From Klebsiella phage vB_Kpn_K7_rec17, in sequence record PQ569716.1: a DNA stretch of 64,000 bases; one strand, written 5' to 3'. Positions 18,369-20,140 of this stretch are shown piece by piece. The notes beneath the pieces were generated by a model that saw only the letters and a program-made list of their open reading frames with translations, had not been told where the DNA came from and ran no database searches. Position numbers and translations under genes: made by a program. Each line of letters opens with the position of its first letter. Position 1 is the stretch's first letter.

Positions 18369-18830
18369 ATGAAAGCAGCCATTCTAATGATCTCCATCCT
18401 CACTAGCTTCCATGCGCAGGCAAAGATTGATGCGCATGAGATAGAGTGCATAGCTAAAAATGTGTACTTTGAAGCTAGAGGGGAAGGAGTTAAAGGAATG
18501 ACCGCAGTTGCACAAGTAACGAAAAATCGTGTTAACTATGGAAAATTCCCGTCCACATATTGTAAAGTAGTCTATCAACCAGGGCAGTTCAGCTGGGTTG
18601 GTAAAAAGAAACATAAACTCGATCGTAAAGACGAAGAGTGGAAACAAGCTAAAGAGATAGCTAGACTAGTTTACTATATGGATCTTCCAGTAGATCCGAC
18701 GAAGGGAGCCTTGTATTTTCACAGTAAGGATACTAAACCTTACTGGACAAAGGACAAGGACTTCAAAAGAACAAGTAAAATTGGCAACCATGTGTTTTAT
18801 AAATTAAAATCTCAGTTGCCTAATGCTTAA
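18369..18830 (+). CDS. SleB-like cell-wall hydrolase with signal peptide
   Basis: 153 aa; N-terminal signal MKAAILMISILTSFHAQA; core resembling spore-cortex-lytic / Hydrolase_2 family proteins. Confidence 0.55.
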   Translation: MKAAILMISILTSFHAQAKIDAHEIECIAKNVYFEARGEGVKGMTAVAQVTKNRVNYGKFPSTYCKVVYQPGQFSWVGKKKHKLDRKDEEWKQAKEIARLVYYMDLPVDPTKGALYFHSKDTKPYWTKDKDFKRTSKIGNHVFYKLKSQLPNA

Positions 18831-18844
18831 AAAGTTGATATAAT
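18816..18844 (+). promoter_or_regulatory. early promoter (TTGCCT-17-TATAAT) with no start codon for more than 1 kb downstream
   Basis: Same cassette as the other early promoters, including ATAAATT and an AGAGAGA SD-like box, but no ATG follows. Confidence 0.5.
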
Positions 18845-18861
18845 AGTTTCATAAATTAGAG

Positions 18862-20140
18862 AGAACAGCGGGCCGATTACGCTGAACTTGTTTTAATGTA
18901 AGACTCGTCGAGCATTAAGATTCGTTGAATAGAATCGGTGAGTTAAGAGTGATCACCTGACAAAGTTCGTGCATCCAGTCCGGATACCGGTCAGGGAGCG
19001 TATTGGACGGGCGTAGGTTAGAGATCTCTTGTAAAACTCGGGAGCTGTCCCGGAGTCTCGTAAACTCTTCTCCTGATTTATAGAAAATGGTGGAATCTCA
19101 CTTTAACCTGTTCGACCAGAATGAAGCATGGTGCGTGGCCTGCCGGAGAGGTGGGGAGCTGAGCCTGAGAAACTCGTATAGCTCCCACACTGACCTGCCT
19201 AGGCCGCAAATTGGAGACATGTGTATAGCGTCTGGTGCTAGTTATTGCCGCCATAGTGGGGTGTCGAAATCACTTATGTAGCAACACTGCCGTCCTAGTA
19301 TAATGGGCATTATCATGGCGTAACTGCCGGAAGATGCAGGTTCAAGTCCTGCGGTCGGAAAGAGCTAGATAACTGATGGTTCTATTGGCGAACCACTCGC
19401 TGCTGGAGTACCTCCTCCCCTCCCAGGAAAAGACTTGGGAGACTCGCGGGAACGAAACAGCTAAACCACGAGGAAACCTGACGGCCTCAACCAAACTCGG
19501 AACTTCGGAGGGTTGCCACCACCTAAACCGATTTGAACGTAAGAGTGGCAGGTGCTAAGCGACCATACGCTGGAAGGCTAGAGATAGCCAAACTTCACAT
19601 CGAAAATTCGGAGGTGTGATTTTAACAGACCGCGTGGAGGATGGCTCTCCAGAAGTGCCAAAACTAGTCCTTAAATACGGCATGATGATCGTATGAACTT
19701 TGGCGAGGTGGGATCTCGCCTGACTCTAAGTGGGAAAGAGTATTCGGATAACCGTTCGTACAAACGGTCGCTCCGAGACCTAAGTGGGACACGGCTGAGT
19801 ATACAGCTCCGCGGAAGCTCGTATACCCTGTGTAAGCATGTGACAATGGAGTCATGACCGGAGTCACCCCGAGCGAAAGCATAACCACTATTTATAGCAC
19901 CCTTACACAGGCTAGAAGTGCCCCTGTTTGGAGTGTGCCCTCGCCTAGACCGCATTAGCCAACGGATATCCGTTGGCCGGGATCTGGCAAGGTATATTAG
20001 TCACCTTGACTATAACTGGAAGATATGTCTGACAGTAGTGCGTACCAATGAGACGCTTAATGAGGGGATTCGTCCTTCGCTACTGGCGGTATCTTTAAGA
20101 GCTTTTACGAGAGTTCTTAAAGATACTAATTGACGAGGTC
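18862..20140 (+). ncRNA. candidate large non-coding RNA or long structured leader (~1.3 kb)
   Basis: No ORF with an RBS in a phage that is otherwise >90% coding; GC-enriched relative to neighbours; many local hairpins; sits downstream of a consensus promoter. Confidence 0.35.

Follow-up and report, generated by a model that had tools for sequence, protein, structure and literature searches.

The window analysed here, a stretch of 64,000 nucleotides (nt) from Klebsiella phage vB_Kpn_K7_rec17 (PQ569716.1), represents a T5-like Klebsiella phage of the Sugarlandvirus type, and it carries between an early promoter and the transfer RNA (tRNA) genes a segment of about 1.28 kb, which is very probably the Sugarlandvirus-type orthologue of RNAX of phage T5 and a genuine structured non-coding RNA. 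The initial annotation, made from the letters of the window, had proposed a large structured non-coding RNA transcribed from an early promoter, and this was borne out by the non-coding character of the segment, its homology to T5 RNAX and covariation-supported helices in several domains. The accompanying statement that the RNA could not be assigned to a known family has to be revised in view of the T5 orthologue.

18851..20127, plus strand: RNAX-family non-coding RNA of ~1277 nt, identified by homology to the T5 misc_RNA rnaX and by plus-strand constraint
18816..18844, plus strand: sigma-70 early promoter with a −35 TTGCCT, a 17-nt spacer and a TG-extended −10 TATAAT; counterpart of the T5 "promoter P 16-17"

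The 5′-end of the RNA was inferred from the promoter geometry, and its 3′-end was set at the foot of the terminal hairpin.

Homology to RNAX of T5 and distribution of the family

BLAST comparison with 50,697 phage records gave matches in 527 of them, and with the exception of a few entries bearing odd labels these were T5-like Enterobacterales phages. These few are named as Campylobacter or Listeria phages, improbable hosts for the T5-like group, and are probably mislabelled or contaminant records. Full-length matches were confined to Klebsiella phages, the 18816-20140 segment being shared at 100% identity with vB_Kpn_K30lambda2.2 and at 95% with phage Sugarland. The best-conserved block (19253-19384) mapped inside rnaX of T5 with 84.8% identity over 132 nt. 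The T5 feature is a misc_RNA of 719 nt (40848..41566 in AY543070.1) described as "RNAX, stable RNA with unknown functions", and RNAX is also annotated in phage DT571/2 (KM979355). In T5, rnaX is preceded by "promoter P 16-17" and immediately followed by tRNA-Arg; similarly, a P16-17-type promoter was found upstream of the RNA in the window and tRNA-Arg(UCU) was the first tRNA downstream, though displaced by two open reading frames (ORFs). The promoter, the core and the GUCACCUUGAC-UAAACUGGAA motif are common to the window and T5, and so is the 3′ module with its GUCACCYUGAC motif, junction and terminal hairpin. No paper on RNAX was found in the literature searched, and the lone match to RNAX combined with phage T5 was spurious.

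Promoter-to-terminal-hairpin units were taken from at least 36 distinct genomes, and their length varied between 656 and 1346 nt. The module table and the pairwise maps revealed that the tRNA-like core and the 3′ module are universal, while the other cassettes are patchily shared. T5 has 50 nt between the transcription start and the core. Other lineages have 186, 197, 212, 229 or 302 nt, and the largest group, which includes the window (418 nt), has 377-497 nt. Mosaicism was also evident: Kpn13-P2 is 98% identical to the window up to ~19255 and 80% beyond this point, and LmqsRe28-2 shows the opposite pattern. The lineages thus differ by insertion and swap of whole domains. The same layout was found in Pectobacterium phage My1, a member of a different subfamily, where a T5-type promoter is followed by a ~980-nt gap free of coding sequences that contains one odd "tRNA-Leu", the identical order of motifs and the same terminal hairpin. 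Three scans of IMG/VR, one metagenome scan and 65 contigs carrying the neighbouring hydrolase gene gave no lineage beyond the enterobacterial T5-like phages, and many 16-mer matches in the wide scans were due to chance.

The initial annotation had noted that RNAs of the GOLLD and ROOL classes are typically found next to tRNA genes and had proposed a search of Rfam. All 4227 models of Rfam 15 were run over 18700-20300 at E≤10, and only a sub-threshold tRNA match and a spurious match to a plastid untranslated region were obtained; GOLLD, ROOL, the group I and II introns and other ribozymes were all unmatched. The likeness to GOLLD and ROOL is one of layout only. The homologous loci of T5, My1, phiR2-01, EPS7 and Eos likewise contained no Rfam family beyond the tRNA match, and neither ARAGORN nor Rfam detected a transfer-messenger RNA (tmRNA) in the segment. 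It could still be argued that the RNA is a diverged member of GOLLD, ROOL, the group I or II introns, tmRNA or ribonuclease (RNase) P RNA, as GOLLD and ROOL share its setting, being phage-encoded beside a tRNA array and sometimes having tRNAs embedded in them (PMC12286853). The finding that the permissive search produced no family other than the tRNA match in either the window or the five homologous loci makes this origin exceedingly improbable.

Coding potential of the segment

In the 18831-20143 region no plus-strand ORF exceeds 64 amino acids (aa) and no minus-strand ORF exceeds 94 aa, which agrees with the initial description of ~1.28 kb of ORF-free DNA. Nine full-length units with 67-96% identity were aligned, and no ORF of at least 40 aa was kept in the diverged members, while only 15 of the 71 pairwise indels had a length that is a multiple of three. 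Pfam and PHROGs searches with the eight longest ORFs returned nothing credible, and the Shine-Dalgarno (SD) core AGGA was mildly depleted in RNAX of the window, T5 and My1 (z −1.4 to −1.7). GenBank annotations of the region conflict with each other: Sugarland has three plus-strand ORFs, Roth37 has minus-strand ORFs and a "tRNA-OTHER", and many records have no feature at all.

Several pipelines do call ORFs of 54-106 aa here, which would favour reading the segment as small protein genes (e.g., Sugarland gp118-120) or as a frameshifted pseudogene. The called ORFs, however, vary by record and strand, they are not conserved in Eos, Kpn13-P2 and LmqsRe28-2, the indels are mostly not multiples of three, Pfam and PHROGs give no match and the substitutions track base-pairing. 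Conserved small ORFs or a known protein gene disrupted by frameshifts, either of which the initial annotation had named as contrary to its proposal, were looked for and not found. With non-triplet indels, no conserved frame and no Pfam or PHROGs match, protein-coding genes and a pseudogene were ruled out as candidates, and we consider them hardly credible.

The universal core junction and its tRNA-shaped domain

The universal core of the RNA folds into a closed junction with the following elements.

19256..19468, plus strand: domain 3, the universal core junction, closed by P4 and holding GGGGUGUCGAA, P1, the tRNA-like domain, P2 and P3
19256-19259 / 19465-19468, plus strand: helix P4 of 4 base pairs (bp), kept in 17 of 17 distinct sequence combinations
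19258-19268, plus strand: invariant single strand GGGGUGUCGAA inside the core junction
19269-19282 / 19364-19377 (19269..19377), plus strand: helix P1 of 12 bp, enclosing the tRNA-like domain via the internal loop AACACU/AAAGA
19289..19360, plus strand: tRNA-shaped domain with an acceptor-like stem, a D arm with GG and a perfect T arm (GCAGG-UUCAAGU-CCUGC)
19378..19394, plus strand: hairpin P2, GGUUC-UAUUGGC-GAACC, directly 3′ of P1, 99% paired
19399-19402 / 19457-19460, plus strand: helix P3, carrying a lineage-specific insert
19453..19504, plus strand: conserved block of 52 nt

Helix P1 was first seen, unexpectedly, when RNAalifold was run on 16 diverse cores; 99.2% of its cells are paired and seven of its 12 pairs show compensatory changes (e.g., CG11/UA10 and GC11/AU10). 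Covarying states were also found in P4, namely GUGG/CCAC in most lineages, ACGG/CCGU in My1 and AUGG/CCAU in KKP3711 and YZU-L1, and at two pairs of P2 (150-164, CG17/GC4; 153-161, CG11/UA7/AU3). A structure written by hand, which included P1 and P2 together with the acceptor-like stem and the three arms (D, "anticodon" and T), was then tested on a 22-sequence alignment. In this structure 90.5% of the cells were paired, as opposed to 32-41% when the partners were slid by 1-3 columns, and 20 of the 37 pairs changed on both sides, a number reached in none of 500 shuffles. The covariance model of the core (R1) detected one copy per genome, scoring 168.1 bits in the window, 165.3 bits in T5, 110 bits in My1 and 89-90 bits in EPS7-type phages. 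Genuine tRNAs matched the tRNA sub-part of the model only, and a full-length match at the tRNA-Arg locus (38.9 bits) was rejected as spurious because its P1 columns were unpaired. A pseudoknot between GGUGU (19260-64) and ACACU (19284-88) was also considered and discarded, being broken by variants in smaug, CitS1 and 1-23.

The tRNA-shaped domain deviates from a tRNA in many respects. In its acceptor-like stem G1·A72 and U5·U68 are mismatched in most members, although two pairs of the stem covary between the window and My1. The "anticodon" arm of the window and T5 consists of a 6-nt loop on a 3-4-bp stem instead of a 7-nt loop on a 5-bp stem, its loop is 4 nt long in My1 and 5 nt in phiR2-01, and in Sugarland it contains an extra inserted hairpin, which itself covaries in a metagenomic variant. 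The domain has neither a CCA nor free ends, as both of its ends run into the covarying P1. The Rfam tRNA model scored 26.6 bits at 19289-19360, below the gathering score of 29, and ARAGORN made no call; the corresponding units of T5 and My1 reached 38.3 bits, which is above the tRNA gathering score. In EPS7 and SLAM_phiST45 the whole tRNA-shaped body is swapped for an unrelated hairpin, while the flanks are invariant. No parent stood out among the tRNAs of the phage itself. These features show that the domain is non-decoding and not a tRNA. Its odd architecture also explains why the public records annotate it in such a scattered way, as tRNA-OTHER, Sec, Ser, Pro, Leu or Undet. In SEL21 (L051, PV402694.1) the unit is called "tRNA-Pro (CGG)", and the same record contains a "tRNA-Ser" feature of 7.7 kb (41832..49515), which is an annotation artefact.

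The 52-nt block at the end of the core covers the 3′ sides of P3 and P4 plus a GAGG...CCUC hairpin, and it is 98-100% identical to EPS7, SLAM_phiST45 and BD13, i.e., to phages of E. coli and Salmonella, while its surroundings are 62-77% identical. This suggests either a recent exchange of a cassette between genera or an unusually strong constraint.

Domains flanking the core

Compensatory pairs, for which the initial annotation had proposed a comparison of T5-like homologues, were found in several further domains. The 5′ part of the RNA contains two domains.

18851..19081, plus strand: domain 1, helix P0 enclosing a lineage-variable insert of ~200 nt
18851-18865 (AUAAAUUAGAGAGAA) / 19068-19081 (UUCUCCUGAUUUAU), plus strand: helix P0, in which the first transcribed bases are paired
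18866-18884, plus strand: stem-loop SL0 within the insert of domain 1
18940-18944 / 19063-19067, plus strand: helix GAGUU/AACUC within the insert of domain 1
19037-19054, plus strand: hairpin of domain 1, covarying as CGGGA/UCCCG, CCGGA/UCCGG and UGGGA/UCCCA
19088..19253, plus strand: domain 2, a long nested arm closed by UGGUGG (19088-19093) / CCGCCA (19248-19253)

P0, SL0 and GAGUU/AACUC were recovered by RNAalifold on 15 lineages. SL0 is compensatory in My1 (CAGCG/CGCUG vs. CAGCA/UGCUG), while the support for P0 consists of its conservation and the placement of the insertions, together with wobble changes and a single compensatory change, in Eos. In T5 the two strands of P0 form a local 13-bp hairpin with a 6-nt loop, thus the ~200 nt found in the window represent an insertion in that loop, where 0, ~120-190 or more nt are present depending on the lineage.

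Domain 2 is found in Klebsiella phages, Eos and several lineages of Epseptimavirus; T5, KKP3711 and My1 lack it. In this arm 93% of the cells were paired, compared with 25-51% in the slid controls, and 14 of 34 pairs were compensatory, which none of 500 shuffles equalled; the structure was derived from the very alignment used for these counts. The domain contains the GGGAGCU/AGCUCCC hairpin (19154-19186), one of four hairpins named in the initial annotation. All four are present, and their comparative support differs: this one is supported by covariation, ACCGUU/AACGGU (19751-19768) shows a single compensatory change, in SEL21, and GGUGA/UCACC (18937-18957) is overlapped by a better-conserved alternative pairing. 

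Pairing cells of the G·U type exceeded those of the A·C type in both domains (83:6 in the core and 39:6 in the arm), so the constraint acts on the plus-strand RNA and not on the DNA or an antisense transcript. This bears on the view that the segment is non-functional debris, left by decayed tRNA genes or homing endonucleases, or else acts at the DNA level, for instance as an origin, nick site or hotspot of recombination. The region is indeed mosaic, mobile endonuclease genes insert alongside it and, in T5, the major nick is located ~1 kb away, but neither debris nor a DNA element accounts for compensatory substitutions in many helices, a G·U over A·C excess of ~14:1 and 6.5:1 and invariant motifs kept across subfamilies, and we regard both as very improbable.

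Downstream of the core, the central region comprises an ordered set of motifs common to all lineages, and it is followed by the 3′ module.

19595..19619, plus strand: hairpin P5, UCACAU/GUGUGA, with the conserved 13-nt loop CGAAAAUUCGGAG and an A-U, G·U, G-C covariation series
19726..19888, plus strand: domain 5, from AAGUGGGA (19726-19735, 19780-19789) to AUAACCAC (19881-19888)
19840-19844 / 19863-19867 and 19848-49 / 19858-59 (stem), 19850-19857 (loop), plus strand: universal AGUCAUGA hairpin
19998..20087, plus strand: domain 7a, a mini-hairpin and a three-way junction
19998-20012, plus strand: mini-hairpin with a GUCA-CCU-UGAC core, the start of the 3′ module
20031-20038 (GACAGUAG) / 20080-20087 (CUACUGGC), plus strand: closing helix of the three-way junction, with hairpins at 20040-20056 and 20062-20078 (UUCG loop)
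20088..20127, plus strand: terminal hairpin with a ~18-bp stem and a UACG cap, near-invariant across subfamilies

P5 is absent from T5, KKP3711 and My1. It carries an invariant, perfect SD-like GGAGGUG (19610-19616), half of which lies in the loop and half in the stem; the ORF following it is unconserved, having by eye 26 codons in the window, 13 in phiR2-01, four in Eos and three in EPS7. The short motif that the initial annotation had reported as duplicated, CTAAGTGGGA, occurs in exactly two copies, at 19726 and 19780, and belongs to the family-wide AAGUGGGA. Pairing of AUAACCAC with one AAGUGGGA copy, which would close domain 5 (GUGG...CCAC), is moderately supported, the strand partners being settled by My1 (ACGG/CCGU) and KKP3711. 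The 8-nt AGUCAUGA loop was invariant in ~18 distinct contexts, although its stem differs in every lineage. The loop includes the palindrome UCAUGA, through which the RNA could form a kissing-loop homodimer.

The closing helix of the three-way junction was missed by MAFFT and RNAalifold because the T5-type sequences misalign, and per-lineage folds were used instead. Separate minimum free energy (MFE) folds of T5, BD13, KKP3711, phiR2-01, Eos and My1 gave the same junction topology from unrelated sequences, whereas the MFE fold of the window itself favours a competing pairing, with the homologous helix available. In Eos and KKP3711 the terminal hairpin shows compensatory changes. The window contains no second copy of it, no U-tract follows it and it does not qualify as an intrinsic terminator. 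The start of tRNA-Arg lies ~5 nt past this hairpin in T5 and EPS7-type phages.

Promoter and genomic setting

The canonical early promoter cassette reported in the initial annotation was found where expected, with the −35 TTGCCT at 18816-18821, the −10 TATAAT at 18839-18844, 10 of 12 matches plus the TG, and the CATAAATTAGAGAG box downstream of the −10. It is the standard early promoter of the phage, as about 12 copies of the cassette are present across the window, and a promoter is annotated at the homologous place in the T5 record. We take it to resemble the classic T5 early promoters, e.g., PN25. The upstream gene (18369-18830), which encodes a cell-wall hydrolase, has its stop codon within the promoter spacer. 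The 18250-18850 region of this gene showed much more negative folding z-scores on the plus strand (to −5.7) than RNAX. From the 18816 promoter onward, no further plus-strand promoter-like site was found before 20815, and no real intrinsic terminator was detected. The GC enrichment mentioned in the initial annotation holds with respect to the immediate flanks (0.50-0.53 vs. 0.35-0.46), but comparable values occur elsewhere in the window, e.g., at 17000-18150, so that GC content alone is weak evidence.

The segment had also been described as lying immediately upstream of the tRNA cluster, which needs correction: two small ORFs (20144-20649), the first being a 108-aa gene of phrog_18988 (function unknown), precede tRNA-Arg(UCU) at 20651, the first of 25 plus-strand tRNAs detected by ARAGORN between 20651 and 30563. 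ORFs between RNAX and tRNA-Arg were also found in My1, 1-23, S124 and CitS1. Insertions recur just 3′ of the terminal hairpin, at a hot-spot that corresponds to 20128-20650 with the two small ORFs in the window, and to 3038-3583, 2146-2655, 2104-2613 and 2080-2589 in loci L059, L053, L054 and L123, respectively. In My1 the insert encodes a T5orf172/MUG113 (GIY-YIG-like) endonuclease, the ATG of which abuts the terminal hairpin, and several Epseptimaviruses have a 169-aa ORF here, while in T5 and EPS7 tRNA-Arg directly follows the hairpin.

Some further observations were made in the tRNA region. Directly 3′ of tRNA-Arg lies a GC-rich hairpin (20727-20767, CUGCCCACA...UGGGCAG), which may be a processing or termination element, and the next promoter-like site is at 20815-20843. 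The segments 24947-25063 and 29020-29116 are ~76% identical to RNA1 and RNA2 of T5 ("tRNA-like stable RNA with unknown functions"), while blastn found no counterparts of T5 RNAI, RNAIII, RNAIV, RNA2H and RNA3 in the window. The tRNA totals of the whole window were 25 by ARAGORN and 23 by Rfam; tRNA-Ala(tgc) (22744-22822) and tRNA-Val(tac) (24619-24694) were called by ARAGORN and scored below the Rfam tRNA gathering score.

Possible mode of action of RNAX

The overall explanation that we favour joins an identity held with high confidence to a mode of action held with low confidence, and taken as a whole it is somewhat more probable than its denial. In this explanation, host RNA polymerase would make the ~1.28-kb RNAX early in infection from the strong T5-type promoter, as the first product of the tRNA-region transcript. 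P0 would bury the 5′-end of the RNA and the UACG-capped terminal hairpin would block 3′ exonucleases, by which RNAX may accumulate. In T5 and EPS7-type phages the RNase P cut at the adjacent tRNA-Arg could create the 3′-end of RNAX. In the window phage mobile ORFs occupy this point, therefore the release of RNAX would need a cut by another endonuclease, or the RNA would stay on the message and be co-transcribed with the ORFs. The RNA may then act in trans as a tRNA-mimicking scaffold or decoy, a role that we propose only tentatively and hold to be possible rather than probable. The tRNA elbow/acceptor shape and the invariant single strands would be shown to a tRNA-recognising host or phage factor, while the tRNA-shaped domain would not be decoded, aminoacylated or cut in its "anticodon" loop. 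Conservation of the elbow and acceptor parts, the freedom of the "anticodon" arm and the locking of the domain in P1 would all suit a factor that reads the shape of a tRNA rather than decoding or excision.

Several observations weigh against this explanation or parts of it. The term "stable RNA" comes solely from the GenBank note of the T5 depositors, and an experimental basis for it was not found in the literature searched; moreover, the T5 rnaX feature spans the promoter-to-tRNA gap exactly, so its ends may have been assumed and not mapped. P0 and GAGUU/AACUC are nearly invariant in sequence and thus offer little covariation, in the case of P0 because its 5′ strand doubles as the promoter-proximal box. 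Local folding energies are unexceptional: the hairpin abundance stressed in the initial annotation was thermodynamically not above chance, the sliding 150-nt MFE z-scores being mostly −1 to −2, and nearby coding DNA performed equally well or better. What supports a structure is the comparison of homologues. The 5′ and 3′ halves of the RNA are not connected by any helix, one closed domain following another along its length, so that cleavage of the transcript into fragments is conceivable. Since the tRNA-shaped body is missing in EPS7-type phages, tRNA mimicry cannot be the sole function. Finally, a conserved gene for a partner protein was not found.

Two specific partners were considered and rejected. 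The YqeY/GatB-tail-like protein encoded beside RNAX in T5 and Epseptimavirus has no homologue in the 64-kb window and no Pfam match, and a CsrA sponge was dismissed as GGA was not enriched (z = 1.8, −0.3, −0.9).

The beads-on-a-string architecture with halves unjoined by any helix would also fit a precursor from which RNase P, cleaving at the tRNA-like unit, and RNase E or RNase III, cleaving at other places, release several small stable RNAs comparable to RNAI, RNAIII, RNA1 and RNA2 of the T5 tRNA region; each domain would then function on its own. Recombination, gain and loss affect the domains as cassettes, two of the seven further small stable or tRNA-like RNAs in the T5 annotation have homologues in the window, and the T5 and My1 tRNA-like units exceed the gathering score with their 38 bits, all of which would be in keeping with such processing. 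The tRNA-like unit, however, lies inside P1 and P1 inside P4, so that its excision would leave the flanks base-paired. In view of the established substrate preferences of RNase P, the unit would probably be a poor substrate, as its leader is double-stranded, G1·A72 and U5·U68 are mismatched and CCA is lacking, and the T5 depositors list RNAX as a single 719-nt species. Processing into small RNAs therefore seems rather unlikely to us, less so than the other alternatives weighed here.

RNAX is always the first element of the tRNA-region unit, it abuts tRNA-Arg in T5 and Epseptimavirus, and no terminator separates it from the downstream genes. Such an arrangement could indicate a purely cis-acting leader with no role in trans, which would, for instance, recruit processing enzymes to the tRNA precursor, insulate it from 5′ decay or tune the read-through into the tRNAs. 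A length of 0.65-1.35 kb, at least six covarying domains and invariant single strands nevertheless exceed the needs of a leader, and mobile ORFs are tolerated before tRNA-Arg in the window, My1, 1-23, S124 and CitS1, which means that tight coupling to the tRNA is not required. The leader function was accordingly judged to be improbable.

A more far-reaching version of the trans-acting scaffold can also be imagined, in which RNAX would stand beside GOLLD and ROOL as a hitherto unrecognised class of ornate large phage RNA, self-associating via the AG-UCAUGA loop, with the tRNA-shaped domain capturing or neutralising a tRNA-recognising host factor. Candidate targets would be RNase P, a site on the ribosome, or an anti-phage nuclease or toxin directed at tRNAs. 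We think that this version is quite unlikely to be correct; if true, RNAX would be an RNA-only device for counter-defence or translation takeover, and the domain expansions (0.65-1.35 kb) would tune it to different hosts.

Significance and comparison with known systems

The existence of an RNA gene at this locus is not new, as the RNAX family has already been annotated in T5. As far as the databases and literature searched show, the new elements are the family-wide structural model, the recognition of the "odd tRNA" as a branch of a closed junction and the growth of the RNA from 0.65 to 1.35 kb through whole-domain insertions. Rfam has no entry for the family, and in more than 500 genomes the RNA is either unannotated or mis-annotated as odd tRNAs or spurious ORFs; annotators are advised to make no ORF or pseudo-tRNA calls in the RNAX region. 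T5 is one of the classic model phages, therapy and biocontrol make wide use of T5-like phages, and the domain map makes the old question of what the "stable RNAs" of phage tRNA clusters do experimentally tractable. RNAX also adds a case from Gram-negative virulent phages to the few very large structured RNAs known beside tRNA arrays.

The closest relative for comparison is RNAX of T5 itself. The two RNAs share the promoter type, the position, the core, AAGUGGGA, the AGUCAUGA loop, AUAACCAC, the 3′ junction and the terminal hairpin. They differ in length, T5 RNAX being 0.72 kb and that of the window ~1.28 kb, the extra parts of the latter being ~200 nt in the P0 loop, the 165-nt arm, an expanded P3, the P5 hairpin cassette and a ~110-nt insert before the 3′ module. 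After the terminal hairpin there are two ORFs in the window, whereas tRNA-Arg follows directly in T5, and the GUCACCUUGAC motif is present in two copies in T5 and in one in the window.

GOLLD and ROOL are non-coding RNAs of more than 500 nt from phages and prophages, often located beside tRNA islands and of unknown function; one half of GOLLD is conserved and the other is variable, and tRNAs can occupy its linker (PMC12286853). RNAX resembles them in lying beside a tRNA array, in combining universal and variable domains and in having a tRNA-related insert. It differs from them in that it comes from enterobacterial virulent T5-like phages and matches no Rfam model. The unit embedded in RNAX is a non-decoding mimic locked in a helix and not a functional tRNA. 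Multimerisation defines the GOLLD and ROOL structures obtained by cryo-electron microscopy (cryo-EM); the one hint at self-association of RNAX is its invariant palindromic loop, UCAUGA.

Small stable RNAs are a further point of reference. The T5 record lists seven smaller "stable" or "tRNA-like" RNAs (RNAI, RNAIII, RNAIV, RNA1, RNA2, RNA2H and RNA3), which are, like RNAX, co-transcribed with tRNAs from early promoters and described as stable, some of them being tRNA-like. They are 70-170 nt long, in contrast to RNAX, which is 5-15 times larger, consists of multiple domains and has no sequence similarity to them. The species 1 and 2 RNAs of T4 are also small stable RNAs of a phage tRNA cluster.

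Mimics of the tRNA elbow and acceptor inside a larger RNA are well known from tmRNA, the YrlA/Y RNAs, the 3′ tRNA-like structures of plant viruses and MALAT1-mascRNA. In such RNAs the mimic module engages tRNA-recognising proteins or processing enzymes and does not serve decoding. The modules of tmRNA and YrlA are built from the two ends of the RNA or are circularly permuted, and the viral ones are 3′-terminal and can be aminoacylated. The module of RNAX differs from all of these in being an internal, contiguous cloverleaf, the acceptor end of which sits on P1 and carries no CCA, and none of these RNAs was matched by Rfam in the segment.

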